Shown here in pieces: positions 20,783 through 45,826 of a DNA stretch of 62,043 nt. Within the stretch, counting starts at the first letter, position 1. The number at the start of each line of letters is the position of its first letter. The notes beneath the pieces were generated by a model. It had not been told where the DNA came from. It saw only the letters and a program-made list of their open reading frames with translations, and searched no databases. The translations under genes were made by a program, and so were the position numbers. Origin of the DNA: a virus (Duplodnaviria > Caudoviricetes); IMG/VR virus record IMGVR_UViG_3300032322_001602, positions 1-62,043 of that record; one strand, 5' to 3'.

Positions 20783-20783
20783 G

Positions 20784-21071
20784 TTACTTCCGCGTCACCA
20801 TTGCCGCGTGGCTTCCGCCCTCGGCAGCGCAGGCAGCTTCCCATGCGACGTTCCAGCGGGTCGTCTGCCAGAACTTCTTGGGCGAGACAACCTGTGCAGG
20901 GTGCAGGAACACAAACTGGCGTGAGGGCCGTAGCGAATGGTACATGCGGTTGAAGACGGCACGTCCGTGGTTGCTCCACTGACGCCACTGCTTCAGCGGA
21001 ACCTTGTATTTGTTGGAGACCGGGCGTCCCGTGGTGCGAACGTACATGATGGTCGGCTTGCGAGTTGGCAT
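20784..21071 (-). CDS. Basic hypothetical protein
   Basis: MPTRKP start with GGAG RBS; first gene after the terminator and putative promoter. Confidence 0.65.
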   Translation of the reverse strand: MPTRKPTIMYVRTTGRPVSNKYKVPLKQWRQWSNHGRAVFNRMYHSLRPSRQFVFLHPAQVVSPKKFWQTTRWNVAWEAACAAEGGSHAAMVTRK

Positions 21072-21102
21072 GGGTGGATCTCCGTGGGGGTAGATATTGC
21101 TT

Positions 21103-21130
21103 AGTATGCCCACGTTTGAGATCAAGTCAA
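21103..21130 (-). promoter_or_regulatory. Putative sigma70-type promoter for the replication operon
   Basis: Minus strand TTGACT-N16-CATACT just downstream of a terminator. Confidence 0.45.
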
Positions 21131-21140
21131 GAGTGACTAC

Positions 21141-21183
21141 AAACAAAAAAAGGGAGGCCCACCGCCGAAGCGGTGAACCTCCC
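21141..21183 (-). terminator. Rho-independent terminator ending the early operon
   Basis: GGGAGGTTCACCGC-TTCG-GCGGTGGGCCTCCC then T7 on the minus strand. Confidence 0.9.
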
Positions 21184-21190
21184 AAGGGAC

Positions 21191-21205
21191 TTAACAGGCT
21201 GTTAA
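21191..21205. promoter_or_regulatory. Palindromic box 1 (TTAACAGGCTGTTAA)
   Basis: Perfect 7+1+7 palindrome extending to 19 bp; lies between the last early gene and the terminator. Confidence 0.85.
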
Positions 21206-21218
21206 GTGTGTCCGCAAA

Positions 21219-21962
21219 TTACCACCTTGATGTCCTGCGTCCGTTCTCGTTGATGAGCTGCGGTACCTTTCGCCCCCCATCTTCCAGAGTTTCAAGCATG
21301 AGGGCGCTGGCCAGAATCTCGTTGAACGGGACCAGCGCTTCGCGCTGCCATGGCTCAATAAGTTGCTTGTTCAGATCGAGAAGCCCAGTCAGGTGCAGCG
21401 GAGAAGCAGCTTTTCGAGCAATGACTTTATCCTTTGCCCCCGGAGGGAAGAACATCAGCAGCTCGGGCCAGATACGAAACATCTGCCCTCCTGTGCTGGT
21501 GTTCGTATGTAGCTGCCCAAGCTTCTTCAACACAGCAGCCCCTTCGTCGTAGAGTTGTGTTACCGAAGCAGCCCACTGAAGCAGGCCCATCCGCATGTCG
21601 TGGGGTAGTAGCGACATCCCGTACCTGTTCACCTCCATCATGTTCTGTGGACGGGTACCGTCGATAAAGGGTATCTCCAGATACCTCACGGGACTTCCGT
21701 TAAAAGCTATCCGGGTCACATCCCACTGCAGCCTGAAGTTCTCTGTAACCCTGAGAAGCGCTTCCCCCAAACTCTCCATCAGTAGTGCCATAGCCTCGTG
21801 CTGTGCTGGCGTGTGGAACGCAGCATAAACCTCCTCCCCTGAGTAGGGACACGGAGCCAGCGCCCTCATGCGGTTCTGCAGCTTAGCCTCAATCCCTTGA
21901 CGGATTCGCTCATAGATAATTCTATATTCCGTCTCAGCTTTCGTTTCGCCATTTCTAGACAT
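21219..21962 (-). CDS. Hypothetical protein, paralog of 21955-22737
   Basis: Shares P.S.E..Y..(A)FH, LL.W.A.V and (W/F)PEL motifs with its neighbour. Confidence 0.7.
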   Translation of the reverse strand: MSRNGETKAETEYRIIYERIRQGIEAKLQNRMRALAPCPYSGEEVYAAFHTPAQHEAMALLMESLGEALLRVTENFRLQWDVTRIAFNGSPVRYLEIPFIDGTRPQNMMEVNRYGMSLLPHDMRMGLLQWAASVTQLYDEGAAVLKKLGQLHTNTSTGGQMFRIWPELLMFFPPGAKDKVIARKAASPLHLTGLLDLNKQLIEPWQREALVPFNEILASALMLETLEDGGRKVPQLINENGRRTSRW

Positions 21963-22737
21963 CGTCGACCCCCCAGTGTGGTTCGTTGATCCATGCCTTG
22001 ACCCTTGCAGTGGGAGACAGAAGCGTCGCAGAAGTAATCAGCTCTATGAACTGCTTCTTGCTTACCGCCTCTGTGCCGAAGGCTTCGTCAATCCGCTTAC
22101 GCAAAAACGCGATGGTCTTTGCCTGCACCTGATTGGTTTGAGATGAATCCCTTGCGTCCGGAAACGCCGCCGGTACTATGCGCATCAGCTCAGGGAACAC
22201 GTAGGGCACATACCTTGGCCTCGGGAATAGCTCGGCCAGCTGGTAGACGATTCCGACACAGGTTGCCAGCAAGGCATCGTGCTTCTTCACCGCCGCGTAC
22301 CACTCCAGCAGCCTGCTGTCGTTGCGGATGGGATCGCCAAGAACAAAGAAGGCCGGGCCTTTCCCCAACACCGAAGTCTTGGGTATAGGCACTTCTTCGT
22401 CATGCCTGACCCACAGTAGCTTCGTGTCGATGAACTCGACGTCGGGTTGAGGGTGGTGCAGCTGCGTCTGTACCTCGCTGGCACTGAGCATGGAGTAGCA
22501 GACAACAGACCCCTGCCTTGACAGAGCATAGATGTTGAAGGGCAGGGGCTTTAAGAAGATATTGTAGGTCCTTAAGTTGTGCCTATGTGTCATAGCATCA
22601 GCCAGTTGGGTAGAAGGATGGAACGCAGATCGGTACATGTCCTCCGCTGAAAGGGGAAAGGGAATGGACTGCTTGGTCCGGTACAGCAGGTCCACCAGTG
22701 AGATGCGCAGTATCTTCTGCAGGTCCACGCTACTCAT
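21955..22737 (-). CDS. Hypothetical protein, paralog of 21219-21962
   Basis: 260-aa ORF coupled to the VWA gene; shared motifs as above. Confidence 0.7.
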   Translation of the reverse strand: MSSVDLQKILRISLVDLLYRTKQSIPFPLSAEDMYRSAFHPSTQLADAMTHRHNLRTYNIFLKPLPFNIYALSRQGSVVCYSMLSASEVQTQLHHPQPDVEFIDTKLLWVRHDEEVPIPKTSVLGKGPAFFVLGDPIRNDSRLLEWYAAVKKHDALLATCVGIVYQLAELFPRPRYVPYVFPELMRIVPAAFPDARDSSQTNQVQAKTIAFLRKRIDEAFGTEAVSKKQFIELITSATLLSPTARVKAWINEPHWGVDDV

Positions 22738-23986
22738 ACTCTGCCACCTTCACCTTCACCACTTCACCGAACGGCGGCACGACGTCTTGCGTCATCACCC
22801 ACACGACGGGGTAATCGGGAGGCGTCTTGGGAAACGTGCCGTACCCGTCCGTGAAGTAGATCATGACCACCGGCTCGACCCCCATCTCCTCGATCTTCTC
22901 GAACGCCGGCTCAAACGATGTGCCGCCACCGCCACGCAGCGCAGGCTTCATCTGGTAGATGTCAGTGTAGCTTTCCAGCTCATGCACATCGTGTACCCGT
23001 GCATCGCACGACATCAGGAACACCTTCTCCGGCTTGCAGGTTGTCAGGATGTCCGCAACCTCAGCGTATGCGGCATCGAACTCCCGCTCCCCCATGCTGC
23101 CGGACGTGTCAACCACCCACGCGATCGTGCCCGCACCGAACCCGGTGTAGCTCGGGTAGTAGATCTTCTGCGTCACCAGCCGACGCCGATGCGGGGAAGC
23201 CCACGTTGTGGTGTCGCGTTCTGCAGCACGAGTGATCAGGTGCCGAAGCATCTCGCGCCAGTTGACCTGTGGGGTCAGAATGTTCGCGACCCACCTCTCC
23301 AGCGAGCCGGGCATCTTGCCCATCGCCTTGGCCTGATTGACCGCCGAAGCAATGGCCCGCTTCATCTCAGCCTCGGTACACTGCGCCGGTTCGTACACAT
23401 GTGTGTCGAGCGGCTTGCGATTTCCCATCCCTTCGTTGCTGGCGTCACCACCCCCTTCTCCCTCTCCATCCTTGGGCTTGGGATCACCCTCGTCGCCTCC
23501 ACCCCCACCTCCGCCTTGAGGTGGCGGCGGAGGTTTCTTCATCAGCTCCTTGTAGACATCCTCGGCCAGCATTCCTCCGTTGAATGCCGAATCGAGCAGT
23601 CCTCCCTTCGGCATGGTGCCGCACTGCGAAGTCGAGAGCATGTCGTTGATCACAAGGTCGCACGCGACATTCCAGACTCCGGGGTGGAACTTGTCCCCCT
23701 CGAAGCCGACGTCCTTGTATCGCTTGGCTCGATCCATGTGCAGCCACATGCAGTGGGCGATCTCGTGGCAGCAGATGAAGACCGCTTCTGGTAGAGACAG
23801 CGATGCTAGGAACTTCTCGTCGAACCAGATGATCTTGCCGTTCGTGCCGGCAGTAGGGATATGCCCGAACGTCCCGACACGCAGGTCAAGCGTGTCGAGC
23901 ATCAGGCTGGCAAAGAACGGCGTGTGCAGTAGCATCGCCGTCCGCATTTCGGTGAAACGCTTCTTGGCTTCAAAGCTGATGTCCAT
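22730..23986 (-). CDS. DUF2201-type metallopeptidase-VWA domain protein
   Basis: TAGTNG, CHEIAH (HExxH), WNVACDLVIN; MIDAS DTSGSM, GGGGTSF, YFTDGYG; AAGGAGG RBS. Confidence 0.88.
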   Translation of the reverse strand: MDISFEAKKRFTEMRTAMLLHTPFFASLMLDTLDLRVGTFGHIPTAGTNGKIIWFDEKFLASLSLPEAVFICCHEIAHCMWLHMDRAKRYKDVGFEGDKFHPGVWNVACDLVINDMLSTSQCGTMPKGGLLDSAFNGGMLAEDVYKELMKKPPPPPQGGGGGGGDEGDPKPKDGEGEGGGDASNEGMGNRKPLDTHVYEPAQCTEAEMKRAIASAVNQAKAMGKMPGSLERWVANILTPQVNWREMLRHLITRAAERDTTTWASPHRRRLVTQKIYYPSYTGFGAGTIAWVVDTSGSMGEREFDAAYAEVADILTTCKPEKVFLMSCDARVHDVHELESYTDIYQMKPALRGGGGTSFEPAFEKIEEMGVEPVVMIYFTDGYGTFPKTPPDYPVVWVMTQDVVPPFGEVVKVKVAEYE

Positions 23987-24446
23987 TGGTCCTCCTTCTA
24001 AGCCTTCTTGAAAATGTCGCGATGGCACCGGGGAACGCAAACCAGTACTGGCGGGTCTCGATCGCAAGTATCCCCCCGGTGCCGTTCTCGATGTAGCTCA
24101 GGGGTTGAAGCCCAAGCGCCTTCTGCACTGGATAGGTCATTCTACGCACGCCCCCTGCAGGGAAAGGATGTGTGACCCCCAGCATGTGCAGCTTGCCGAT
24201 CAGTTCGTCTTGGTACTCCGGCAGCACAATGAATGCTGCAATGACGAACGCCTTGACGTCTTCCCACACCCCCCTGTCCATGCGGCTGAGGAGAGGAGAA
24301 GACAGGTGCCGATCATCTACAAGCTGCATTGCCAGCTTGTCTGCACGCTCCTTCCCCAGAAACGCATCGAACTCGTCAAGGCTCATCCCCTTGTGGATCC
24401 TTCTCAGTTTGCCAGTCAACTGGAAGTAGTGAAGCGGGTCCGTCAT
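23970..24446 (-). CDS. Hypothetical protein
   Basis: MTDPLH start overlapping the upstream stop (ATGA). Confidence 0.65.
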   Translation of the reverse strand: MTDPLHYFQLTGKLRRIHKGMSLDEFDAFLGKERADKLAMQLVDDRHLSSPLLSRMDRGVWEDVKAFVIAAFIVLPEYQDELIGKLHMLGVTHPFPAGGVRRMTYPVQKALGLQPLSYIENGTGGILAIETRQYWFAFPGAIATFSRRLRRRTNGHQL

Positions 24447-25639
24447 GCGCCCCCCTTCGCGAGCCGGTCCATCATCCTGATGGCCGTGCGCGCATCCTCG
24501 CCCACTTGCGCACGGATACCCGGTGTGTTGCGCAACGCCTCCGTGTCGTGTACGCACAGGTGCTGGGTAATGTACGCCCGGATCTCCTCCACCCGCTGAT
24601 CGTTGGTGACGTTGAGGTGCTTGAGCTGATGTGCCACCGACCGCACGTTGTCCACCAGCGTGTAGTGGAACTGGTTGTCGGGATTGGACAGCCGCTCAGC
24701 CATGCGGCCTACGGCTTCGTGCGCCCGCACCCACAGGTCCTGCATCGCATTCTCCAGCATCTTCTTGGTCTTGTCCTGCAGAGCATCTGCCAGCGCTTGG
24801 CACTGCTGGGCCGGCAGTCCCTTGAAGTCGCTACTGGCCGGCACGGGCTGGAAGTCGAAGGACAGATCGAAGTGCCCTCGAATGCTGTCGACGTTGGGAT
24901 ACTCGGTGATCATGAACCGCTTGCCAAGATTCTTCCGTGCCAGTTCGATCAGCTTCGGGTACTCCGGCACGAACTCGTCGAGCGCTTCGTTCATGCTCGC
25001 CTTGCGCTTGCCCAGCCTGCCGATGAAGTCGAAGAACGACGTGTTGGGCAGCATGCGTGCGCCAGTCCGCCGACCCTGATCGTCGAGCCCCGTCGTTGTC
25101 CACGGGAGTGTCATCTCGTAGAACTCAGCACGGGCCGAGTCGATCTCCCGATGGATCTTCTTGAGCTTCTCGTCGGCTCCCGACAGCAGGTGCTTGCGGG
25201 TCTCGAACGCATCCGCATTGGCGTCGCTCGCACTGGCCGCATCCTTGCTGGCCTGCCGGTCTTTCACCTTCGCGTGCCAACGCTTGGTGTTGAGCGTAAC
25301 CAGCGTGGCGAAGTTGCGGATGTCCAGCGTCTTCGCAATGTCGTCGGTTGCGAATGTCGGCAGGGCAACGGACGGCAGCGCGTACTCCGTTCTGTCCGCT
25401 GTGTCAGTAAACACGCTGTCGCTCGCCTTGTTGATGACACCCGTGGCCGCGTCCGTCGTGCCTTGCGCCTCGGCGGTTAACAGGCTGTTAACCACGTCGG
25501 CGTCGATCGCCTTCAGCATGCCCTCTTTCATTGCGTTGACCACCGGCACCTCGTGGGCCGGGATGATAGCGCTTGGCTTGGGGTCTTCCCCACTCAGGAT
25601 GTCAGCCAGTAGCGCACTGATGTCGTCGAAGTCAGCCAT
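24443..25639 (-). CDS. Helical protein accompanying the AAA/VWA module (DUF3150-like)
   Basis: TLPW..G.RMLP, EYP..IRGHF..FDFQPVP, LNVTND pattern; location between ATPase and VWA genes. Confidence 0.6.
   Translation of the reverse strand: MADFDDISALLADILSGEDPKPSAIIPAHEVPVVNAMKEGMLKAIDADVVNSLLTAEAQGTTDAATGVINKASDSVFTDTADRTEYALPSVALPTFATDDIAKTLDIRNFATLVTLNTKRWHAKVKDRQASKDAASASDANADAFETRKHLLSGADEKLKKIHREIDSARAEFYEMTLPWTTTGLDDQGRRTGARMLPNTSFFDFIGRLGKRKASMNEALDEFVPEYPKLIELARKNLGKRFMITEYPNVDSIRGHFDLSFDFQPVPASSDFKGLPAQQCQALADALQDKTKKMLENAMQDLWVRAHEAVGRMAERLSNPDNQFHYTLVDNVRSVAHQLKHLNVTNDQRVEEIRAYITQHLCVHDTEALRNTPGIRAQVGEDARTAIRMMDRLAKGGA
25477..25491. promoter_or_regulatory. Palindromic box 2 (intragenic)
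   Basis: ggTTAACAGGCTGTTAAcc inside CDS 24443-25639; encodes VNSLLT. Confidence 0.8.
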
Positions 25640-25796
25640 TGTGTGCGTCCTCCATTGTTCGCTTGATGAGCTGCTGCTTCAGAGATTCCTTCAGCAGTTG
25701 AGACTGCTTGAGAACTTTCTGGGTCGCAGCGGTTTTCCGCCTTGCCTCGGCAAGCTGCTGTTCCAGCCGCCACCTCGGCAATGTCGTCAGTTTCAC
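25632..25796 (-). CDS. 54-aa coiled-coil protein, not in the ORF track
   Basis: GTG start overlapping the upstream stop, GAGGAGG RBS; MKLTTLPRWRLEQQLAEARRK... Confidence 0.6.
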   Translation of the reverse strand: MKLTTLPRWRLEQQLAEARRKTAATQKVLKQSQLLKESLKQQLIKRTMEDAHNG

Positions 25797-26191
25797 GGTA
25801 CCTCCTCTGTTTTAGGAAGCTTCAGGATGAACTGCTGGTATGCCTGCGGTTGCAAGACAACATCGCCGAGACCCCACTGCTTGCTGCTGTACTGTACGTC
25901 GATGCAGTTCTTGTGATGGCCGGACAGCGCGATCCGCATATAGATTCCTGCATGCAGGATCTCAATCTTGTCCGTGTCGATGTAGTGCTTGCGGATTGTC
26001 GGGCCTCCGACCGTATCGCAGATGAAGCTAGTCACCCAGACATCCGTCTGCTTCTGCGTGTTCATGAACCTGTTAAGTTCATTGACGGCAGTCTCCCTCT
26101 GCCGTGCCAAGTCAGCGATGTGCAGCTGCGCCCACTGCGGCAGGGCCTCGATCCTCGCGTGGATCGTAAGGTCGGGTATGCGTTTCTTCAT
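25793..26191 (-). CDS. Hypothetical protein
   Basis: MKKRIP start in ATGA overlap with the ATPase stop; LPQWAQLHI motif. Confidence 0.65.
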   Translation of the reverse strand: MKKRIPDLTIHARIEALPQWAQLHIADLARQRETAVNELNRFMNTQKQTDVWVTSFICDTVGGPTIRKHYIDTDKIEILHAGIYMRIALSGHHKNCIDVQYSSKQWGLGDVVLQPQAYQQFILKLPKTEEVP

Positions 26192-27249
26192 GAACGCATC
26201 AGCATGTTGGCAGCCATCACCAGATCCTTGTTCTCGCGCAGCCAACTGGCGAAGTCAGGAGTCTGGATCATCTGCGGGCAGCGACGCAGCACGGCTTTCA
26301 GGCCAGCCACCTGAAACTCCTTGCCCAGCCGCCGCAGGTACGTGAACGCCGGCTTGGCACTCATGCTGTCAACACGATGCGCCACCATCTGCATAACGGC
26401 GTAGGTCGCGTCGGGCTTGGAAGGAACCGACACCTTCTCAGGCGCAGCGATGATGTCTTCCCACTTCGGCAGTTCCTCAGCCACGCGCAGGAACGCCACG
26501 AACTCGGCAGCTGCCCCTTCGCCGATGTAGCCCGCCGCCGCCTCGGTGAACAGCGCCATTGGCAGCTTGCCAATCAGGTGGCTGACCTTGGTGAACGTGC
26601 GCGGCGTGCAGAAGGGACCGGGCTTCTCTGGAACGGTGTCCTGAAAGACGATGCCCGGCTTGACCTTCGCGAATGCAATGGTGAACGGGTTCAGCCCCTG
26701 CCGCTCGGCCCAGTCCACCCACGAGTCGAGACTCGGCTCGATGTTCAGCCGCATCTTGCGATTGTCGATGAACGCCAATCCGCGCCCGACACCAGAGCGA
26801 TCCTTCTCGCGATTGCTCGCGCCGATGACCATGTAGCTGATGGGCAACTGACTGTCGCCCACCCTTCCACTGTGGAGCAGCTCCGCCGCCGGCTTCACCA
26901 CGTCGTGGTTGGCTTGGCCCAGCTCATCCAAGAACACGATGCCGTACTCCGAGTCCCCCAGCCGTGGCATCCACGGAGCCTTGGTGAACGTCATGATCGG
27001 CGTGCCGTCCGTGTCCCGCCCCGGCAGTCCGAAGCCTCGGACGTCCGGCGGCTCGACCGTCGTCAGGAAGAACGGCTTGATCGTCACCGGCTTGCCCAGC
27101 TTCTTCGACAGCTTCTCGCCCGCTTGGTACACAGCGGCGGACTTGCCCAGCCCCGGACCGCTCACCATCTCAATGGCGAAACGCTCGCCGGTCTCCTGCT
27201 GGAGGCAGAACACATCGACGATCAGGTCGATGGCTTGATTCAGGTACAT
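26188..27249 (-). CDS. MoxR-like AAA+ ATPase
   Basis: Walker A SGPGLGKS, Walker B IVFLDEL, sensor GASNR, TPRT; AAGGAG RBS. Confidence 0.88.
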   Translation of the reverse strand: MYLNQAIDLIVDVFCLQQETGERFAIEMVSGPGLGKSAAVYQAGEKLSKKLGKPVTIKPFFLTTVEPPDVRGFGLPGRDTDGTPIMTFTKAPWMPRLGDSEYGIVFLDELGQANHDVVKPAAELLHSGRVGDSQLPISYMVIGASNREKDRSGVGRGLAFIDNRKMRLNIEPSLDSWVDWAERQGLNPFTIAFAKVKPGIVFQDTVPEKPGPFCTPRTFTKVSHLIGKLPMALFTEAAAGYIGEGAAAEFVAFLRVAEELPKWEDIIAAPEKVSVPSKPDATYAVMQMVAHRVDSMSAKPAFTYLRRLGKEFQVAGLKAVLRRCPQMIQTPDFASWLRENKDLVMAANMLMRS

Positions 27250-27264
27250 GCGATCTCCTTGCCC

Positions 27265-27279
27265 TTAACAGGCTGTTAA
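27265..27279. promoter_or_regulatory. Palindromic box 3, between the -10 element and the RBS of the ATPase gene
   Basis: TTAACAGGCTGTTAA; overlaps the -10 hexamer by 2 nt. Confidence 0.85.
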
Positions 27280-27306
27280 TATAACACAATCGTGTGGCGA
27301 AATCAA
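27278..27306 (-). promoter_or_regulatory. Sigma70-type promoter for the ATPase/VWA operon
   Basis: Minus strand TTGATT-N17-TATATT. Confidence 0.7.
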
Positions 27307-27307
27307 A

Positions 27308-27739
27308 TCAACTTTCATCTGGGTCTACGAATCCCTCCCTGAGCTTATGCTCTATTACCGTACCGTCTGTGCAAAACGAGCGTGCCGTCACATGGTTGCC
27401 CGTGGCGTCGAACTTCTCCCAGAATTCCGCAAAGCCGTTGTAATCCGCCAGTGCGGTCTTGATGCGTCCGTCGGGGATGATAGCGAACAGCGTCACCATG
27501 AAGTCGTAGTGCGCGTACCAGCTTGCGTAGGCGCTCTTCTTGCGAGTCCCGAACCCACGTTTCGCCCCCGGGCCGTTCAAGTCTCGCACCCGTAGCATGA
27601 ACGTGAAGCCCTTGCCCTTGGGAAACGGCGGAGTCTCCCTCTGGTGGCTGTTGCCGAAACAGATGTTGCCCTTGTACTTCTTGTTGATCTCGTCAAGGGC
27701 TTGCTGAAGTTGCATGCGGGTCCATCCGTGTGTGATCAC
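27308..27739 (-). CDS. Hypothetical early protein
   Basis: 143-aa ORF, GGAGG RBS, GTGA coupling. Confidence 0.7.
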   Translation of the reverse strand: MITHGWTRMQLQQALDEINKKYKGNICFGNSHQRETPPFPKGKGFTFMLRVRDLNGPGAKRGFGTRKKSAYASWYAHYDFMVTLFAIIPDGRIKTALADYNGFAEFWEKFDATGNHVTARSFCTDGTVIEHKLREGFVDPDES

Positions 27740-28233
27740 AGGTTGACCTCCTTGTAGAGCTTCTCATCTCGGTGGCGAATGCCAACAATCTTATAATTAT
27801 CCGATAGGACTACGGAGCTGCCGCGGCTGCGGGTAGAGCGCAGGAGAATGAAGACAGGCCGCCAACCTGTCGTCATTGCAACCATTCCAGTGTTGTAGTC
27901 CTTGCGTCCGCTCGGATATTCGTATTCCACCTTCAGGTACACACTTCCGAAGGATTTATAGTAAGGGACAAACTTCCGTGCCATGCAGGCAGTGGAAAAG
28001 TTGGGCTCTCTCAGTAGTTTCTGCCCAACCATCGCACGGAAGTGAGTGGAGTACGGCGCGTACAGGAAGTAATCGCAGAACTCCGCCATAGCCTGCACAG
28101 GCTCAGACGCGGACTCAGCGGCAAGTGTCAGCGCAGGGTTTGCCCCTTTGAGGCATTTCCCGTATCTCGTGTTCTGGACAGGCGTCTGGACAAAGTGGTA
28201 GCAATCGAAGCAGCGGCGCTGATTGTCGGTCAC
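27736..28233 (-). CDS. Hypothetical early protein (Cys-rich N-terminus)
   Basis: GTG start in GTGA overlap with GGAGG RBS; CFDCYHF. Confidence 0.6.
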   Translation of the reverse strand: MTDNQRRCFDCYHFVQTPVQNTRYGKCLKGANPALTLAAESASEPVQAMAEFCDYFLYAPYSTHFRAMVGQKLLREPNFSTACMARKFVPYYKSFGSVYLKVEYEYPSGRKDYNTGMVAMTTGWRPVFILLRSTRSRGSSVVLSDNYKIVGIRHRDEKLYKEVNL

Positions 28234-28535
28234 GATGCCTCCACTTTGGTGTAGCGCTCGGCAGTGCCACCGCATTCGCACACACCACTGTGAGTCATGG
28301 GGCGCTCGAAGGATTTCTTGCACCTGCTACAACGCACGCCCACCCTTGTCGCATCGATGATTGCCAGCAGGTTGTCCTCGTCGTCTCTGGCGGCAAGGAT
28401 CCCGCGCACGTCAGCCAGTACGTTCCGCAGGTTCTCGATCGTCTCAATGGCGTGGCCGATGATGTTGCGGCCTACTGGCCGGTCATAGAGAATCATGTCA
28501 AGCTTGTTGAGATGCTCTGTGCTGGATACATTCAC
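28230..28535 (-). CDS. Hypothetical protein with a C-terminal Zn ribbon
   Basis: CSRC..CECGG; GAGGAG RBS. Confidence 0.6.
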   Translation of the reverse strand: MNVSSTEHLNKLDMILYDRPVGRNIIGHAIETIENLRNVLADVRGILAARDDEDNLLAIIDATRVGVRCSRCKKSFERPMTHSGVCECGGTAERYTKVEAS

Positions 28536-28663
28536 GACGGTTCTCCTCTGAGCATGTAGAAGATAAACGCCAGCAGCCCAGCCATGTTGGCCAGCAGGAC
28601 AGCGGCGGCCACGATGATAGCGAGTCGGCCCAGCGGGCCGATGGCAGTGAGGAAGGCGCGCAT
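28532..28663 (-). CDS. 43-aa membrane peptide, not in the ORF track
   Basis: MRAFLTAIGPLGRLAIIVAAAVLLANMAGLLAFIFYMLRGEPS; TGATG and GTGA overlaps on both sides. Confidence 0.6.
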   Translation of the reverse strand: MRAFLTAIGPLGRLAIIVAAAVLLANMAGLLAFIFYMLRGEPS

Positions 28664-28923
28664 CAGCGTGCCTCCACACCAAGCAGCGGCCACACATCAA
28701 AGGTGAATTCTCTCTTGCCGTTTCCAGCGCTCCAGTTTTCCGCGATCCACACATCCGCCTCCATGACGCTGGCAAACGGGCCGTAGTGGCTAGCGGTCTC
28801 ACCAGTGAAGTAGCAGGCTTCGACTATGTAGCACACAGGCGGAGACTGCATCATCATGCCGCAGCCCGAACACACTTCGAGCCGTGGGGCCTGCGTGCCG
28901 CAGCGCTTGCAGAAGAACTTCAT
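28663..28923 (-). CDS. Small Zn-ribbon protein
   Basis: CKRC..CSGC; ATGA coupling. Confidence 0.6.
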   Translation of the reverse strand: MKFFCKRCGTQAPRLEVCSGCGMMMQSPPVCYIVEACYFTGETASHYGPFASVMEADVWIAENWSAGNGKREFTFDVWPLLGVEAR

Positions 28924-29174
28924 AAGATCCTCCCTGTCAGCTCACGCAGCAGTTCCCGAACACACTCGGGAACCTGCGTGTAGTCAAGCTGACGGTAGTA
29001 CTGAAAGCAGCGGTCGATCAGTTCAATCGGCTCGATTGGTGCGCCATCCGACTCTTGATTGTTCAGCGCATTGTTGAGCGCCCGCCTCTCACGTTCGCTG
29101 AACGAATCGAGTTCATTGATGATGTCGTCGATGTCGATGTCGACTTCAACCTCTGTGGTCATGGTGAACGACAC
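28920..29174 (-). CDS. Acidic hypothetical protein
   Basis: EVEVDIDIDD N-terminus; GAGGAG RBS just downstream of box 4. Confidence 0.65.
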   Translation of the reverse strand: MSFTMTTEVEVDIDIDDIINELDSFSERERRALNNALNNQESDGAPIEPIELIDRCFQYYRQLDYTQVPECVRELLRELTGRIL

Positions 29175-29190
29175 GGGAATCTCCTCGGCT

Positions 29191-29205
29191 TTAACAGCCT
29201 GTTAA
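29191..29205. promoter_or_regulatory. Palindromic box 4 (TTAACAGCCTGTTAA)
   Basis: Intergenic, immediately upstream of the RBS of 28920-29174. Confidence 0.85.
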
Positions 29206-29221
29206 TCGATGATGATAGCGA

Positions 29222-29647
29222 TCAGGAGTTGCTGATGCGCGTTGCCTTGCCGATGACCTTGACCTTGCGATAGGTCGCCATGTTCTTATACGACCTCTTG
29301 TTCTCGATGGGGCAGGCCGAATACAGGAAGTCCTTGCGCTCGACCTGCAACCGGATGACCCGAAGATGGCGACGATTGCCGAACTGCTCGATGCCGTACC
29401 GCCTCGCGTGCGCACGGGTCTTGAACACGTAGAGTCCCTCTAATGTCTTGTGGAAAGTGCGGCCAGACTGCGGCTCGGTGAGCGACACGCTCGTCAATGC
29501 GCGTGTGCCAAGCTTGAGTGTCTCACCCGCCTTGTAGCGCTTGGGGTAGATGGGAGCCCACCACGAACCAGTGTGCTTGATCTTCACGACCTTGTAGACG
29601 AAACGATTGCGCCACGGCTTGGCCAGACGGTCGATTACGAAACACAT
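29222..29647 (-). CDS. Basic hypothetical early protein
   Basis: MCFVID start with GGGAGG RBS. Confidence 0.65.
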   Translation of the reverse strand: MCFVIDRLAKPWRNRFVYKVVKIKHTGSWWAPIYPKRYKAGETLKLGTRALTSVSLTEPQSGRTFHKTLEGLYVFKTRAHARRYGIEQFGNRRHLRVIRLQVERKDFLYSACPIENKRSYKNMATYRKVKVIGKATRISNS

Positions 29648-29648
29648 G

Positions 29649-30065
29649 TTACACCTCCCGCTTTTGCAGCTCGATGACCCACCAATCGCATCCATCCTGC
29701 GCGACCTTCGCATACTCGATCGCGTCCTCGGGCGAAGCGAATGGCCCAACATGGTGGAAGCCGTCCGCAGGCGTACCAGCGATGACGATCCAGCTTCCGC
29801 TCTGCTCAGTCGCAGGCTGAGGCTTGAGTCCGCCACCTTCCAGCAACTGAAGGCGGGAGAAGACTTCAGTGAGTTCCCCGACAGTACGTGTGCGGAACTG
29901 CTCCTGATCGACGAGCCTGCTGTTGAACGCCTTGTGCTGGCGTGTTGAAGCCTGCGCCGCCTTGCGCAGGTTCGCGACTTCGTCTTCCAGCACATGGATT
30001 GCCCGCCACAAATTGTCGAACTTGGCTTCCAGTGTTCTCTTGGTTAAGAGACTCATGTAGTTCAC
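29649..30065 (-). CDS. Hypothetical early protein
   Basis: Coiled-coil plus GTPADGFHHVGPF C-terminal motif. Confidence 0.65.
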   Translation of the reverse strand: MNYMSLLTKRTLEAKFDNLWRAIHVLEDEVANLRKAAQASTRQHKAFNSRLVDQEQFRTRTVGELTEVFSRLQLLEGGGLKPQPATEQSGSWIVIAGTPADGFHHVGPFASPEDAIEYAKVAQDGCDWWVIELQKREV

Positions 30066-30532
30066 CCCTTGTTGAGCGAGTTGATGAACCGCAGCAGGGC
30101 CTCGGGCGTGCCAGTTACGGCCAGCGCCTCAGCCTTCGCGATGACGGCCTGCACCTGTTTCTCGATCGAGCGAGGCACGTTGATCGTGAACTTGTCCTCC
30201 CACCGCTTGGTCTTGGGCAGGATGTAGGAGACGATGTCCACATACGACGAGCGAGAGTCGTCGTACTCGATCTCGAACACTCTGACGAGATCCTCGAACG
30301 CCTTGTTGGGCTTGACCTTCAGGATCAGGTAGTCGCGCTCCAGATAGAGCTTGTCGGTGTAGTCCAGTGGATTGGCTGAGACTGCCGCCCGGATGTTCTT
30401 GAGGGCCGTGTTGCGCTCAGCCACCAGTCGCTCTCTGGCTGCGTCGTTCATCTTGCGAAGATGCGCCTCAGTAGCCACGGTCAGCATGGCGAGCTGCCGA
30501 TTGGTGAGGGGCTTGGGGTTCTTGGTGTTCAT
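30062..30532 (-). CDS. Hypothetical early protein
   Basis: 156-aa ORF, AAGGA RBS just downstream of box 5. Confidence 0.7.
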   Translation of the reverse strand: MNTKNPKPLTNRQLAMLTVATEAHLRKMNDAARERLVAERNTALKNIRAAVSANPLDYTDKLYLERDYLILKVKPNKAFEDLVRVFEIEYDDSRSSYVDIVSYILPKTKRWEDKFTINVPRSIEKQVQAVIAKAEALAVTGTPEALLRFINSLNKG

Positions 30533-30550
30533 GGTCGTGTGTCCTTTGGC

Positions 30551-30565
30551 TTAACAGCCTGTTAA
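30551..30565. promoter_or_regulatory. Palindromic box 5
   Basis: TTAACAGCCTGTTAA; supplies the TAA stop of 30562-30783 and precedes the next RBS. Confidence 0.85.
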
Positions 30566-30783
30566 TGCTTCGTGTTGGAAACGTCCGCGCCCAGCAGCGC
30601 GGCATCGATGATAGCGATCACCTTCAGGCAGAGTTCGAGGTTGGCCTCCTTGTTGACGTCAGGGTTGGCGCTCTTGCAGCGGTTGTAGGTCAGGATCCAC
30701 TGCCAGCGCATGAATTCGTAGCTGCTCCGCGCCGCACGCACATCCGTGTCGGGCTGCAAATCGAGATCGGCGCATCCGTCCAT
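30562..30783 (-). CDS. Hypothetical early protein
   Basis: 73-aa ORF, AAGGAG RBS. Confidence 0.6.
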   Translation of the reverse strand: MDGCADLDLQPDTDVRAARSSYEFMRWQWILTYNRCKSANPDVNKEANLELCLKVIAIIDAALLGADVSNTKH

Positions 30784-30788
30784 TGCCG

Positions 30789-31124
30789 TTACTCCTTGGG
30801 TATGAGAAGTTGCTTTTGCAGGTTGTACTCCCGCAGCAGTGCCGCGTCGCGTTGCTGCTCCATGCTGGCCAGCGTGGTCTCCAGCCTGTCGATCACGCCA
30901 GCGTGTTCCGCCAGCGCGGCTTGCTGCTGGCGCACCTGCTCGCGCAGAGTCTGCACGTTGTCACTGATGGGATTGCCTAGCTTGTCTACTTGAGTGGCAA
31001 GATAATCCTCGTAGGTCACGAACGTCCCGTTGGGCACCTCGACGCAGCCATCCTGATACTCACCGGGCTCGTCGGCATCGCGGGGATGCTCGTACACCTT
31101 CCAGCGTTTCACCTGCTCGGTCAT
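30789..31124 (-). CDS. Hypothetical coiled-coil early protein
   Basis: MTEQVKRW start, GAGGAGG RBS; GTFVTYEDY motif. Confidence 0.65.
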   Translation of the reverse strand: MTEQVKRWKVYEHPRDADEPGEYQDGCVEVPNGTFVTYEDYLATQVDKLGNPISDNVQTLREQVRQQQAALAEHAGVIDRLETTLASMEQQRDAALLREYNLQKQLLIPKE

Positions 31125-31645
31125 GGGATTCCCTCCTCCTCTGGGCAACGGCTGTCCCGCTCAGCCAGTGCCTGCTGGTACAGCGCCGCGTCGCTGGGTG
31201 TCAGGGTGCAGGCGTTGGTCATCTGCCAGCAGTTCTCGTAGGCCACGATGCGCTGCTCTAGGACGGCACAGGAAGGGCGTGGCAGGTCGCGCAGTCCGGG
31301 CAGGAAGAACAGCAGGAGCAAGAGCAGGAACGCCGCGAGGAGCAGCAGCGGGCCTACAGCGCTGACGTTCCCTCCCTGCCGCTTGCGGTAGTGCCGCAGC
31401 AGGGTCGAACCCGCTGGCTCCTTCATTCGCACGGCATGCTCGATGCCCATGTAGTCGGTCACTTCGTCCACGAAGTCGAAGCTCTCCACTCCATTGCTGA
31501 GCATGGCTTCGTCGGTCTTGCTCTGGGCTTCCTTGGCGGTTCGGGCCATCACGTAGTGGTCGTAGAAGCAGGTACGGGCTACACGGACTGCCACGGTATA
31601 GACTGCCCACGAGGTGCGCTTGGTCGGCTTAGTGCCCATCGTCAT
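31121..31645 (-). CDS. Hypothetical membrane protein
   Basis: Central Leu-rich transmembrane stretch. Confidence 0.55.
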   Translation of the reverse strand: MTMGTKPTKRTSWAVYTVAVRVARTCFYDHYVMARTAKEAQSKTDEAMLSNGVESFDFVDEVTDYMGIEHAVRMKEPAGSTLLRHYRKRQGGNVSAVGPLLLLAAFLLLLLLFFLPGLRDLPRPSCAVLEQRIVAYENCWQMTNACTLTPSDAALYQQALAERDSRCPEEEGIP

Positions 31646-31806
31646 TCTCCCTTGGTGTGTGGAATCTTGAACTTGCCCTGATCGTCGGTCCAGAGGTCGG
31701 GACGCTTCGACCAGTGCTTCTTGTGAGCGTGCTTGGCATGCTGGTCCATGCGTATTGCACGTTTCAGGGCCTTCGGGCTGGGGATGGTGCGATCGCGGTG
31801 CTTCAT
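31642..31806 (-). CDS. Small basic His/Lys-rich protein
   Basis: MKHRDR start with AGGAG RBS. Confidence 0.55.
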   Translation of the reverse strand: MKHRDRTIPSPKALKRAIRMDQHAKHAHKKHWSKRPDLWTDDQGKFKIPHTKGE

Positions 31807-31877
31807 CGTCGTTCTCCTGAAGGCGGACAGTTGAAACCCACTCGGGGCCTTCGGGCCGAAGGGGTTTTGGGGAGCGG

Positions 31878-31892
31878 TTAACAGCCTGTTCA
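31878..31892. promoter_or_regulatory. Palindromic box 6 (one mismatch)
   Basis: TTAACAGCCTGTTCA, adjacent to the dyad element. Confidence 0.7.
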
Positions 31893-31898
31893 GATAAA

Positions 31899-32203
31899 GT
31901 CCGGGTAATTGTCTGTCCAATTACCGTATGTTTTGGATTTTCCGGCCAATTAATTTGCGTGCAGAATCAAGGACTTAACCTGAAATGTCTTAATGTCCAG
32001 TTGTTTCAAACGAGAGAGCGCGTAGCAGTTTAGTGATTTTGGCTCTAGGCCCTCCAGCTCGGCTCACGCAAATTCTCCCGTGGGGGCCTCGTTTAAAACA
32101 ACTGGACATTTAGACATTTCTTTATATATATATGATTCTATTGGCTTATTAATTGGCCGACCCCCCCTCAAAAAGCTGGACAAGATGCGGCAGAAAGCCG
32201 GAC
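31899..32203. repeat. Nested inverted-repeat AT-rich element, candidate replication origin
   Basis: 33-bp arms 31982-32014/32088-32120 (2 mismatches) plus 12-, 7- and 6-bp arms, all symmetric about 32051. Confidence 0.8.
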
Positions 32204-32318
32204 AGTTCTCGCAAATGGGGTGCATCCGTGCCCAAAATGATAGTGACCCCCCGGGCCGGCGGCCCATCGGCCCGAAACGCCGCATGCGTTGTGCAACGCT
32301 AGGTTTGAAACCTTGCAT
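32064..32318 (-). CDS. Possible small protein (doubtful; runs into the inverted-repeat element)
   Basis: GGGAGG RBS and box 7 upstream of the ATG at 32318. Confidence 0.3.
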   Translation of the reverse strand: MQGFKPSVAQRMRRFGPMGRRPGGSLSFWARMHPICENCPAFCRILSSFLRGGRPINKPIESYIYKEMSKCPVVLNEAPTGEFA

Positions 32319-32332
32319 TGTGGAACCTCCCA

Positions 32333-32347
32333 TTAACAGCCTGTTAA
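32333..32347. promoter_or_regulatory. Palindromic box 7
   Basis: TTAACAGCCTGTTAA directly upstream of a GGGAGG RBS on the minus strand. Confidence 0.85.
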
Positions 32348-32391
32348 CCCTTGGTGTGCCACAAATCAGCGGGCTCGCCCGTTCTGCGGGC

Positions 32392-32428
32392 AAAAAAGGG
32401 GCGCTGCCGGGATAACCCCGGCAGCGCC
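32392..32428 (-). terminator. Rho-independent terminator after the first early gene
   Basis: 12-bp stem GGCGCTGCCGGG/CCCGGCAGCGCC followed by T6 on the minus strand. Confidence 0.85.
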
Positions 32429-32444
32429 AATCGACTGGGGAACT

Positions 32445-33062
32445 TCAGCCGAAGAGCTTCTTCGCCTTCGCCGCGTCACGGTACTCGATCAGGTCATCCG
32501 GCAGGCCGATGTGCAGGTAATCGGCCACGGCCACGAGTGCGGCCTTCGCGTTGCCGTCCATCGGCTTGAACTTGGTCATGCCGATCAGAGCCTTCAGATG
32601 CGCTGCCGCCGACTTCTTGTAGTCGGGCTTCTTTTCGACAGTGAACGCCGCGACCGCATCGGCCACAGACTCGCCGCCATCCAGCGACTTCTGAAGTTGC
32701 GTGCAGAACTTCTTGAGTTTGTCGATGTTGGCCGCGACAAGGGCAAACGGCTTCGCTTCCAGCGCCACGATGACGGGGGCGCAGCGCGCCAACTTCTTGG
32801 CAGCCGACACGAGCGCCGGGATCGAATCCTTGGCAATCGTCGGTCGCTTCGCGTACATCGCCTCACACGCATCGGCAACCCGCTGGGCTTCGGCTTTGTC
32901 GAGGAGCCGGCCCTTCAGAGCCTTTGTGCCGACGTCTTCCAAGATCGCTTCGCGGAACGTCATCACGAGTCCGCCGCGATCTGTCGCCTGCACGATGCTG
33001 GCCGCGAGATGGTTCACCACAGCATCGGTTAACAGGCTGTTAACTTTCGCATTCGCCTTCAT
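32445..33062 (-). CDS. First early gene; Ala/Lys-rich helical protein (205 aa), monocistronic
   Basis: MKANAK start with GGAG RBS; own terminator; start bracketed by boxes 8 and 9. Confidence 0.75.
   Translation of the reverse strand: MKANAKVNSLLTDAVVNHLAASIVQATDRGGLVMTFREAILEDVGTKALKGRLLDKAEAQRVADACEAMYAKRPTIAKDSIPALVSAAKKLARCAPVIVALEAKPFALVAANIDKLKKFCTQLQKSLDGGESVADAVAAFTVEKKPDYKKSAAAHLKALIGMTKFKPMDGNAKAALVAVADYLHIGLPDDLIEYRDAAKAKKLFG
33029..33043. promoter_or_regulatory. Palindromic box 8 (intragenic)
   Basis: gTTAACAGGCTGTTAAc within codons 7-12 of 32445-33062; encodes VNSLLT. Confidence 0.8.
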
Positions 33063-33129
33063 TGCATGTACTCCACTGCACGGCCGGGATGGCCGCTCAC
33101 TAAGCCCTTCGCGGGAGAGGGGCATTCGC

Positions 33130-33144
33130 TTAACAGGCTGTTAA
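33130..33144. promoter_or_regulatory. Palindromic box 9
   Basis: gcTTAACAGGCTGTTAAgc upstream of the first early gene. Confidence 0.85.
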
Positions 33145-33275
33145 GCCCGGCGCGAAGCGGAGAAAGGACACCGGGGTACCGGACCAAGGCCCCCCCACCC
33201 GTACGCCCCTGCTTGGGTACTTCGGCCCCACATCCCGAAAAAAATTAAAACAACACATAAAAGGCCCATCACCTA

Positions 33276-33304
33276 TTGACACCCACAGTTGACCCATCTA
33301 GGAT
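33276..33304 (+). promoter_or_regulatory. Sigma70-type rightward promoter with an A-rich UP-like tract
   Basis: TTGACA-N17-TAGGAT; A-rich 33238-33262. Confidence 0.75.
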
Positions 33305-33312
33305 TCGCTCAC

Positions 33313-33558
33313 ATGACCGACCAAGACGAGACGATCGCCACTACGATGGTCCTGCTGCACGGCAACCCTCCAGCAGGATTGCGCTGGCGGCCCGGCGGCT
33401 TCGAAAAGAGATCGCACGATGCTCGTCAGTACTGCAAGGCTCTGCAGGAATTGATCATTGAAGTGATTCCGGGGATCAAGGGCCAGAGAGCAGGGATTCA
33501 TCGCAACCGAGTGCTACGAATACTTTTCACCCGTCTCGATAGAAAGCAGGTGCCATGA
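33313..33558 (+). CDS. Hypothetical protein, probably leaderless
   Basis: ATG 8 nt after the -10 element, no RBS. Confidence 0.5.
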   Translation: MTDQDETIATTMVLLHGNPPAGLRWRPGGFEKRSHDARQYCKALQELIIEVIPGIKGQRAGIHRNRVLRILFTRLDRKQVP

Positions 33559-33559
33559 A

Positions 33560-34949: not shown

Positions 34950-34971
34950 TCAACCCGCAAAGGAGACCCTC

Positions 34972-35697: not shown

Positions 35698-35700
35698 GCG

Positions 35701-35732
35701 AAAAAAAGCCCCGGCGGGTTAAGGCCGGGGCT
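35701..35732 (-). terminator. Intrinsic terminator oriented for minus-strand transcription
   Basis: Stem AGCCCCGGC/GCCGGGGCT with an A-run on its left only. Confidence 0.65.
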
Positions 35733-45825: not shown

Positions 45826-45826
45826 G

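Follow-up and report, generated by a model that had tools for sequence, protein, structure and literature searches.

A conserved network of putative palindromic operators in one gene block of uncultured podophages

We analyzed a window of 62,043 bases that is a complete virus record (IMG/VR record IMGVR_UViG_3300032322_001602; Duplodnaviria, Caudoviricetes), and we describe a 15-bp palindrome, TTAACAGSCTGTTAA, which it carries in nine copies within one 12-kb block of leftward genes. Palindromes of the same build stand at corresponding positions in related phages, where they are written in other letters. The resulting multi-site network of putative operators is real and conserved in a clade of uncultured podophages, and the protein that would read it is possibly novel. 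From the comparison of genomes, we consider it probable that the nine palindromes are duplex-DNA operators of a phage-encoded, sequence-specific symmetric dimer that switches the block as a unit.

Results

Nine Palindromes in One Block of the Window

An exact scan of the whole window recovered eight copies of TTAACAGSCTGTTAA, at 21191, 25477, 27265, 29191, 30551, 32333, 33029 and 33130, while 100 dinucleotide-preserving shuffles of the window yielded 0 exact matches. At up to two mismatches there were nine copies (0.02 expected), the additional one being 31878 (TTAACAGCCTGTTCA, a single mismatch), and at up to three mismatches the same nine were found across the whole window (0.22 expected). 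Since nothing was added at this threshold, the remaining ~50 kb is empty of even degenerate copies. The nine palindromes span 12 of the 62 kb (21191-33144). These are the copies reported in an initial annotation of this DNA, which had noticed none elsewhere; its spacings of 101, 696, 455, 1327, 1360, 1926, 1788 and 4286 bp agree with the coordinates, and its count of nine now stands against shuffles and expectations of 0 to 0.22. We conclude that the copies, their coordinates and their confinement to one 12-kb block are real and far beyond chance.

The genes of the window were described from crude open reading frame (ORF) calls, PHROGs (72 ORFs) and Pfam (41 ORFs). By the ORF calls, two arms diverge near 33.2 kb. 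The leftward arm opens with about 20 small genes of no known family, followed by a MoxR-like ATPase gene (26188-27249), a 398-aa gene (24443-25639), a DUF2201 metallopeptidase/VWA gene (22730-24067) and two paralogues of no known family. Terminator-like hairpins follow the first leftward gene and the last palindrome (Table 1). Given the placement of these terminators and of the control region, the palindrome stretch therefore forms a defined block, which runs from the control region to the terminator at 21183-21152. Calling this block the early arm is an assumption.

The positions of the copies relative to genes, as first annotated, also held. Four copies (27265, 29191, 30551 and 32333) lie 14-18 nt upstream of a start codon on the minus strand, with the ribosome-binding site (RBS) in between. 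Copy 27265 also overlaps the -10 hexamer of the predicted promoter 27306-27278, so that the putative operator would cover the expected start point of the ATPase transcript. Copy 21191 is followed by a strong terminator-like hairpin and T-run (21183-21152), and copies 25477 and 33029 are intragenic. Copy 31878 is located ~72 nt upstream of the 54-aa gene 31642-31806, whose start was judged from the start of its homologues. An alignment of the sites in the window and in three related contigs (G001, G002 and G003, introduced below) showed no conserved position in the flanks.

Palindromes of the Same Build in Related Phages

An exact scan of 2.9 million viral contigs for TTAACAGSCTGTTAA returned 73 stretches, of which 57 were single copies; the other 16 came from three contigs, which carry 6, 8 and 4 exact copies. 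At up to two mismatches, these contigs hold 14 (G001), 9 (G002) and 8 (G003) sites, against 0 for a reversed-pattern control. In each of these, the sites extend from the divergent region down the same arm. G002 and G003 align collinearly with the window (~70% nucleotide identity); the likeness of G001 to the window is limited to capsid and portal. Variation among the G001 sites sits in the central three bases. Three sites of G003 carry the symmetric double change TTAGCAG-S-CTGCTAA, and one is a hybrid site.

Viral contigs were also searched with an ATPase alignment. The 20 loci obtained led to close relatives that the exact scan had missed and that carry other palindromes of the same build (Table 1). 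In total, eight related uncultured phage contigs have 5-14 copies each of a palindrome of this build in the same arm. In the complete or near-complete genomes the sites are located in a single 10-20-kb stretch (G003, 49413-59478; G546, 45765-57275; G001, 20287-40251). The ATPases are 88% identical between G002 and G547, 80% between G002 and G003 and 89% between G546 and G548, and the window ATPase is 70-74% identical to all of these. With ATPases so similar and palindromes that nonetheless differ, change in the letters was therefore rapid and affected all copies jointly. Relative to the G002 type, all 10 sites of G547 show one and the same symmetric pair of changes, a pattern that a trans factor changing along with the sites would explain.

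The closest cultured relatives are Rhizobium phages of the RHph_TM3_14A type (capsid 54.6% identical), and a megablast of the palindrome block against GenBank phages gave no match. RHph_TM3_14A (MN988472) carries TTACC-N5/6-GGTAA in ~35 copies genome-wide, in both arms, and the distant relative L247 carries TTACCC-N3-GGGTAA in 23 copies over 21 kb. In both of them the palindromes are also present at stop-codon/RBS junctions, and gene-junction palindromes seem to be a hallmark of the whole phage group.

We compared the sites of eight genomes side by side in the direction of transcription. The block ends in the order stop codon, palindrome, hairpin and T-run in 8 of 8 genomes (21191 in the window). 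An ATPase promoter of the form TTGATT/TTGAGT-17-TAnnnT, with a -10 that overlaps or abuts the lineage's own palindrome, was found in five of the eight (the window, here G000, as well as G002, G003, G547 and G549). All eight have a palindrome inside the 398-aa gene, at identical alignment columns in the six closer genomes, and the linker at this place encodes (V/L)NSLLT, VNCQLI or VASLAT according to the motif of the lineage. Because the linker residues follow the lineage motif, it is the DNA motif that dictates the protein at this linker.

The remaining positions have counterparts as well. One or two palindromes lie upstream of the first leftward gene (G002 12807; G003 59439 and 59464; G547 14093 and 14120; G001 40237), and copy 32333, which follows the first-gene terminator, corresponds to sites at G002 12093, G547 14787 and G001 39346. 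Counterparts of copy 31878 are found at G002 11640, G003 58165, G547 15248, G546 55915 and G548 17647, with a conserved leader after each, and those of copy 30551 at G002 10939, G003 57443, G547 16478, G546 54238 and G548 15566. Five genomes, the window not among them, have a palindrome upstream of the VWA gene. Across nine genomes, 47 of 85 sites are intergenic by the ORF calls, with a noncoding share of only ~5-11% in most of these genomes.

We thus observe the sites, their positions, their conservation, their co-variation and their overlap with a predicted promoter. As to conservation in related phages, for which the initial annotation had asked, positions and architecture are kept in eight related contigs, whereas the letters are not kept and co-vary by lineage.

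Several short elements accompany the palindromes. Past the counterparts of copy 31878, the leader before a small basic protein gene of 54-65 aa holds a CACACG..TATGGGCC...GGCCCAT-like hairpin in five relatives (Table 1), for which Rfam gave no match; in the window, a different GC-rich hairpin stands at the leader position (31806-31878, minus strand). The spacer of the conserved ATPase promoter likewise contains a CACACG motif. A second short repeat, GATCGCTATCATCGA-like and holding a -10-like TATCAT, lies upstream of two palindromes (window 29206-29222 and ~30598-30614, G002 ~10990, G547 ~16440); it is located once in the coding end of the 73-aa gene and once between genes. The control region has a conserved GGCTTAGTGAGG-like element followed by a CCCC..GGGG hairpin (window 33075-33100, minus strand; G002 ~12830-12860; G003 ~59490-59520; G547 ~14050-14090), which lies upstream of the first palindromes in these relatives; in the window, it is downstream of copy 33130. 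Between 25500 and 37200 of G001, hairpin repeats of the TAAC(C/T)TCGG(G/A)AGTTA type lie near the palindromes, and a CGTGACTGTA-like motif is found 12-50 nt upstream of five sites.

Recognition of the Palindrome as DNA or RNA

The palindrome could be read in the duplex or, as a hairpin with a 6-bp stem and a 3-nt loop before the RBS, in RNA (or single-strand DNA). In the latter case, a phage protein or nuclease would recognize the hairpin, with a role in translation, processing, stability or antitermination of the polycistronic transcript. Most sites occupy the short gap that separates a stop codon from the following RBS, a location that would suit such a role, as would that of the last site, which adjoins the terminator hairpin in 8 of 8 genomes. 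The changes in G003 and between lineages keep both arms complementary, and RHph_TM3_14A has two half-site spacings (15- and 16-mers).

The letters themselves point to the duplex. Of the 76 15-mers, all 76 have G or C at the center, and in both orientations relative to the mRNA, as a G:C pair on the dyad of a duplex predicts and a loop nucleotide would not. RNA-binding proteins usually read the loop and not the stem sequence. In these phages the stem is constant within each genome and the center is variable (G001, L247); the variation of the central three bases is in itself loop-like, but the letters that stay identical are those of the stem. Folded as RNA, three of four sites preferred another small hairpin as the minimum-energy structure, the palindrome hairpin reached only -3.2 kcal/mol, and no z-score among the four was below -2.41. 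On the sense strand of imperfect sites, A.C (4 cases) is commoner than G.U (2 cases). Transcripts predicted from the conserved ATPase promoter would begin inside the palindrome and so lack the hairpin, and no Rfam family matched. Taking the central base, the constant stem, the weak fold and the start point inside the palindrome together, we therefore favor a symmetric dimer that would recognize the duplex-DNA palindrome, and we regard the hairpin as unlikely.

Cassette Boundaries, Host Factor and Phage Promoters

The palindromes might also be cassette boundaries or mobile elements, that is, short recombination or insertion signals that flank exchangeable early genes and are not primarily regulatory. 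Promoter-stem-loop repeats have a comparable role in T4-type phages. Copies do stand exactly at gene junctions, and many of the genes between copies lack a homologue in the closest relatives while the flanking sites persist (Table 1). A metagenome-assembled genome (MAG) labeled Hyphomicrobiaceae furthermore has four exact solitary copies and a repeat like a miniature inverted-repeat transposable element (MITE) with motif-like ends; its contigs, however, share no protein similarity with the phages. Fifteen bases are very short for homologous exchange, PHROGs and Pfam revealed no transposase or recombinase in the block, and orthologous sites changed their letters in place and did not move. The promoter overlap and the in-frame intragenic copy in six to eight genomes point instead to a selected cis function, which makes a boundary role very improbable.

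In this MAG (G008; loci L211, L215-L217 and L221-L231), the four exact solitary 15-mers lie in ordinary intergenic regions, e.g. between obg and proB. The MAG also has ~30 near copies, against 3 for the control, and most of these near copies are termini of a MITE-like repeat of ~130 bp, which has long terminal inverted repeats. The contigs are ordinary chromosome, unrelated to the phages, and nothing comparable was seen among the genomes sampled, 150 others from the family and 400 from the order.

A host factor was among the binders first suggested. TTAA-N7-TTAA is the form of the CtrA box of Alphaproteobacteria, and sites read by CtrA would tie the block to the host cell cycle, a link that has been described for other phages of Alphaproteobacteria. 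The window has eight instances of TTAA-N7-TTAA, all of them palindromes, and 8 of the 9 palindromes have this form; the nearest cultured relatives infect Rhizobium. Localized clusters of CtrA boxes in phages of Alphaproteobacteria, with support from electrophoretic mobility shift assays, are described in an excerpt of a published study (PMC9437464). In Mesorhizobium and Nitratireductor, moreover, the exact 15-mer stands between two flagellin genes in tandem, in the form TTAA-N7-TTAACCAT. At these loci (L212 and L213 in Mesorhizobium, L214 in Nitratireductor), the 15-mer occurs with either central base and adjoins a second TTAACCAT half-site; it is probably a CtrA-type site of the host genus.

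Sister phages, however, whose ATPases are 72-89% identical, use TTGCTAG-, TTACTCA- and TTACACA-types without a TTAA dyad at the same positions; G003 has TTAG/CTAA variants, and RHph_TM3_14A has no TTAA-N7-TTAA at all. The 7-bp spacer and the flanking CA/TG are fixed in the palindromes, whereas a CtrA box does not require a fixed spacer. The extended CtrA motif of S. meliloti, as given in an excerpt of PMC4914127, is a direct repeat (GTTAACC-N5-TTWAMCAT) with C where the palindrome has A at position 6; the base after the second TTAA is unconserved in the palindromes. Nor is the exact 15-mer enriched in host-like genomes. It was found in 4 of 151 genomes of the family labeled Hyphomicrobiaceae and in 7 of 401 of its order (reversed-pattern control 1 and 3), as a single copy in each, one MAG excepted. 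A scan of bacterial genomes gave at least 120 stretches with the exact 15-mer; among the matches listed, nearly all were single copies in unrelated phyla, and none of the stretches examined was like the phages beyond the motif.

Given the sister-lineage palindromes, the fixed spacer and the lack of enrichment, it is thus unlikely that the sites are read in general by a fixed host factor. CtrA, or any other fixed host factor, was set aside as the general explanation after the non-TTAA palindromes of the sister lineages came to light, and we see hardly any chance that the sites tie the block to the host cell cycle in this way. A secondary role of CtrA at TTAA-type sites is possible.

N4-like phages have hairpin-type promoters read by a virion RNA polymerase, and promoters of a phage polymerase are identical within a genome and divergent between lineages at orthologous intergenic positions. 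Hairpin promoters for a cryptic phage RNA polymerase, e.g. a domain of the 3130-aa virion protein, could hence account for identity within a genome and difference between lineages; the 6+3+6 geometry and the typical 11-19 nt to the start codon would fit, and ~1900 residues of the 3130-aa ORF are without a family match. This explanation is very improbable: the motif is fully symmetric with unconserved flanks and so directionless, its central base is uncorrelated with gene direction, it stands 1 to 68 nt from the start codon (several copies at 1-6 nt, which leaves no room for a leader), some copies are intragenic and others immediately precede terminators, PHROGs and Pfam detected no RNA polymerase family, the 3130-aa ORF included, and one site has a conserved sigma-70-like promoter. 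An early suggestion, that of loading sites on first-injected DNA, found no support.

Candidate Binding Proteins

For the favored symmetric dimer, the best candidate is the product of the first leftward gene (32445-33062), which we call p205. The gene is the first beside the control region, has its own terminator and carries one or two palindromes upstream. The protein has no Pfam or PHROG family, and Pfam found none in 35 family members. Its family comprises 31 clusters among 1.84 billion representatives, all ~180-240 aa with no fused domain. A word-index search with p205 gave three proteins, and a metagenome scan for relatives gave two loci, one of which is the same phage as G003 at 99.5%. 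Two close database homologues also carry VNSLL(T/S) at the stretch encoded by the palindrome. Among G002, G003 and G547, p205 is 42-44% identical, compared to 78-88% for the ATPase. The TTGCTAG phages have a remote homologue in the corresponding position (hhalign probability 88.6%, E 2.6e-6, 173 columns).

The isoelectric point of p205 is 9.3-9.9. An AlphaFold (AF2) model built from 35 sequences is all-alpha, with a predicted local distance difference test (pLDDT) of 92.8 and a predicted template-modeling score of 0.81. A homodimer was predicted with a score of 0.56 against 0.00 for the best control, the runs sharing at least 92% of contacts at a partner pLDDT of at least 75. Among proteins of solved structure, 20 of 30 pairs and 1 of 23 single chains attained this mark, counts that hold only roughly since the p205 alignment was one that we supplied ourselves. 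In the model, the predicted interface consists of the conserved C-terminal residues 146-204 and would leave the variable N-terminal two-thirds free. The initial annotation had named this product as one possible binder. Its position, its fast evolution and the predicted dimer make it the best candidate; no DNA-binding fold was found. We regard p205 as the putative palindrome binder that fits the genetics best.

The annotation had also named the ribbon-helix-helix (RHH) protein encoded on the other arm (Table 1), which is present in G000 (the window), G002, G003, G547 and G550. We rejected it as the binder, as it does not track the motif: G002 (TTAACAG) and G547 (TTAACTG) have one and the same beta-strand, from which that of the window differs; no RHH protein was detected in G546 (97% complete, TTGCTAG) or in G001.

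The other conserved small proteins, namely an 86-aa zinc-ribbon-like, an 89-aa, a 73-aa and a 54-aa basic protein, show identities that follow phylogeny or are too conserved across motif types; the 89-aa protein, for example, is 81% identical between a TTAACAG and a TTGCTAG phage. As binders, these four are neither supported nor excluded.

Genome Layout and Further Features

Beyond the terminator that ends the block are genes for a dNMP kinase, a DNA polymerase, an exonuclease, a helicase and a primase-helicase. The rightward arm consists of small genes (the RHH protein gene included), a glycosyl/methyl-transferase cluster and terminase, portal, capsid, tail and lysis genes, followed by the 3130-aa ORF (53-9445). 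PHROGs (72 ORFs) and Pfam (41 ORFs) identified no RNA polymerase, integrase or known repressor family, although divergent ones could escape.

In the 3130-aa ORF (plus strand), an SLT transglycosylase domain is N-terminal, an LPD39 'polyvalent protein' domain is located near residue 2100, and the C-terminal part is similar to antirestriction proteins of the DarB type; its ~1900 middle residues are those without a family match. G003 has a homologue (50%), and the Rhizobium phage a weak one. The stretches 36098-41684 (plus strand) and 41681-43072 (minus strand) hold a cluster of glycosyltransferase (GT-D and others) and methyltransferase genes, which lies between the small rightward and the structural genes, and the large terminase gene, which is on the strand opposite to its neighbors. 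In relatives, homing-endonuclease-like genes (GIY-YIG-like, or HNH-like with a zinc ribbon) stand at the first rightward position (Table 1); there is none at this position in the window.

Table 1. Coordinates of the palindromes and other features in the window and in related phages
Genome	Feature	Positions	Strand	Remarks
Window	Palindrome copy 1, TTAACAGGCTGTTAA	33130-33144		Divergent control region, 68 nt upstream of ATG of first leftward gene; exact scan
Window	Palindrome copy 2	33029-33043		Codons 7-12 of first leftward gene, encodes VNSLLT; exact scan
Window	Palindrome copy 3	32333-32347		14 nt upstream of ATG of second leftward gene (32064-32317)
Window	Palindrome copy 4, one mismatch	31878-31892		Leader of small basic protein gene 31642-31806
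Window	Palindrome copy 5	30551-30565		TAA is stop codon of upstream 73-aa gene; next ATG 18 nt downstream
Window	Palindrome copy 6	29191-29205		16 nt past stop codon, 16 nt upstream of GTG start
Window	Palindrome copy 7	27265-27279		Over predicted transcription start of ATPase promoter, 15 nt upstream of ATG; operator-like
Window	Palindrome copy 8	25477-25491		Variable linker of 398-aa gene (24443-25639), encodes VNSLLT
Window	Palindrome copy 9 (last)	21191-21205		Between stop codon of gene 21219-21962 and terminator
Window	First leftward gene, p205	32445-33062	-	205 aa from ATG 33062; best candidate regulator; orphan, basic, all-alpha, predicted homodimer
Window	RHH protein gene	34767-34949	+	Pfam RHH_3, E 1.9e-5
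Window	Predicted sigma-70-like promoter, TTGATT-17-TATATT	27306-27278	-	MoxR-like ATPase gene; consensus scan
Window	Predicted rightward promoter	33276-33304	+	Consensus scan
Window	Terminator-like hairpin	32400-32428	-	13 pairs then T-run; closes first leftward gene as its own unit
Window	Terminator-like hairpin	21152-21183	-	14 pairs then T-run; ends palindrome-bearing block
Window	Genes between copies without homologues in closest relatives	25632-26245, 27308-27739, 28920-29995, 30062-30532, 30789-31645
G547	Palindrome TTAACTG-S-CAGTTAA			10 copies
G546	Palindrome TTGCTAG-S-CTAGCAA	45765-57275		11 copies, all in this stretch; genome 97% complete
G548	Palindrome TTGCTAG-S-CTAGCAA			10 copies
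G549	Palindrome TTACTCA-S-TGAGTAA			5 copies
G550	Palindrome TTACACA-NN-TGTGTAA			9 copies
G002	Leader	~11560-11640
G003	Leader	~58090-58165
G546	Leader	~55840-55915
G548	Leader	~17570-17647
G547	Leader	~15263-15330
G001	Homing-endonuclease-like gene	40478-41023
G002	Homing-endonuclease-like gene	12833-13396
G547	Homing-endonuclease-like gene	13519-13998
G546	Homing-endonuclease-like gene	57396-57878

Discussion

The initial annotation had proposed binding sites for a dimeric protein that switches the arm as a block in the manner of stoperators, as opposed to a standard lysogeny switch. Comparative data make the dimer the best supported reading; we infer DNA binding, the identity of the binder, the switching and its sign. 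The same build and positions with lineage-specific letters favor a phage-encoded, co-evolving dimer over a fixed host factor. In the mechanism that we propose, host RNA polymerase would transcribe the leftward arm from sigma-70-like promoters, and the regulator, most likely the product of the first leftward gene 32445-33062, would be made early. It would bind the two copies at its own gene, leading to autoregulation, and the copy over the start of the ATPase promoter, where it would block initiation. At the copies between stop codons and RBSs, the bound regulator may act as a roadblock, or these copies may anchor a complex that is looped or cooperative. All of the 12-kb unit, which extends from 33144 to the terminator at 21152-21183, would in this way be turned down together, while the replication operon past the terminator and the structural arm, which are without sites, would be left alone. 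In related phages, protein and sites would have co-evolved to different specificities, with the sites staying in place.

Several observations weigh against operators read by a rigid dimer, and against p205 as that dimer. A clear promoter is found at one site only, and roadblock or looping is assumed for the others. The half-sites of RHph_TM3_14A, spread genome-wide with two spacings (15- and 16-mers), are easier to reconcile with a hairpin, and it is not obvious what a roadblock repressor would gain from a site immediately ahead of a terminator. As for p205, Pfam recognized no DNA-binding domain in 35 members, a profile search of the PDB gave nothing meaningful, and a Foldseek comparison of the model with PDB and BFVD returned no match at E <= 0.001. 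VIA gave a Z of 5.6-5.9 at best. The likenesses of residues 145-205 to the helix-turn-helix region of Spo0J (Z 5.6, 57 residues, root-mean-square deviation 2.9) and of p205 to a TetR-family C-domain (Z 5.3, 109 residues, root-mean-square deviation 5.4) are both under the stated reliability of this tool for helical proteins, and the leads from the ESM Atlas, DUF3102 (0.79) and Phage_Repressor_c (0.78), both remain below the 0.9 bar. The divergence of p205 does not track the motif in a simple way, given that G000 (the window) and G002 share a motif although their proteins are only 32% identical, and that G002 and G547, at 44%, have different motifs. Finally, hhalign of the first-gene products of G550 and RHph_TM3_14A against p205 was not significant; only a short K-K-S...L motif matched.

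The clade displays, at single-base resolution, the rewriting of a many-site regulatory network, with ten sites changed between G002 and G547 and with intermediate and hybrid sites in one phage. It also carries a caution, in that a TTAA-N7-TTAA cluster in a phage of Alphaproteobacteria need not be CtrA, and the sister lineages show why. If p205 is the binder, it would represent a new DNA-binding family together with natural orthogonal protein-operator pairs of at least four specificities. A further-reaching proposal, which we consider doubtful, is that the p205 family, for which no known fold was detected, is a new class of sequence-specific DNA-binding global regulator that forms interchangeable specificity groups with its roughly ten palindromes at gene junctions and brings about immunity-like exclusion without lysogeny in phages that are apparently non-temperate. 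If so, a phage that is resident or arrives first could shut down the early block in a co-infecting relative with the same palindrome, and competition between phages would drive the repeated rewriting of all sites.

Among known systems, the stoperators of Cluster A mycobacteriophages come to mind first. One phage regulator, a helix-turn-helix immunity repressor of temperate phages, acts at stoperators, where it stops elongating polymerase, and also controls an early promoter; site and repressor co-evolve into specificity groups. The nine copies in the window and the 47 of 85 sites that are intergenic in nine genomes are stoperator-like features. The likeness to the L5 gp71 type, according to excerpts of PMC9283540 and PMC6550527, lies in many copies of one short site in intergenic gaps. 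Stoperators, as an excerpt of PMC9283540 has it, are asymmetric 13-mers in both arms, co-oriented with transcription and bound by a monomer. The sites described here are, in contrast, perfect 15-bp palindromes with a G/C center in both orientations; all nine are in one arm, as is the case in G003, G546 and G001; and PHROGs and Pfam show no integrase or known repressor family, the binder being a candidate only. The palindromes are therefore not a member of the stoperator family.

Symmetric elements are known from the Streptomyces phage phiC31, whose conserved inverted repeats (CIRs) are located at many intergenic, mainly early positions, one of them at the repressor gene c. The palindromes resemble the CIRs as inverted repeats at many intergenic positions; the copy at the regulator's own gene fits only if p205 is the regulator. 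They differ in host phylum and in phage type, phiC31 being a temperate siphovirus. Phage_Repressor_c has no Pfam match in the window ORFs or in the 35 members of the p205 family, and the ESM Atlas lead to it (0.78) is below 0.9.

The hairpin promoters of N4, which are directional and lie a fixed short distance from the start of the transcript, differ from our sites, which are symmetric, have unconserved flanks and stand 1-68 nt from the start codon. Unlike the CtrA boxes, the sites form a true palindrome and not a direct repeat, CA/TG and the spacer are fixed, and G546, G548, G549 and G550 are without TTAA. What they have in common with the CtrA-box clusters in phages, as presented in an excerpt of PMC9437464, is TTAA-N7-TTAA concentrated in one region, along with a host that is probably alphaproteobacterial.

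The KorB and KorA operators of IncP plasmids and the ParB-type sites of phage-plasmids are scattered short palindromes with a central G/C, through which one dimeric protein silences a region. Our sites differ from them in that Pfam identified no ParB/KorB family in the window or in the control regions of relatives, and no partition ATPase was found. They are like these operators in that palindromes recur in a dozen places, at promoters, far from promoters and inside genes.

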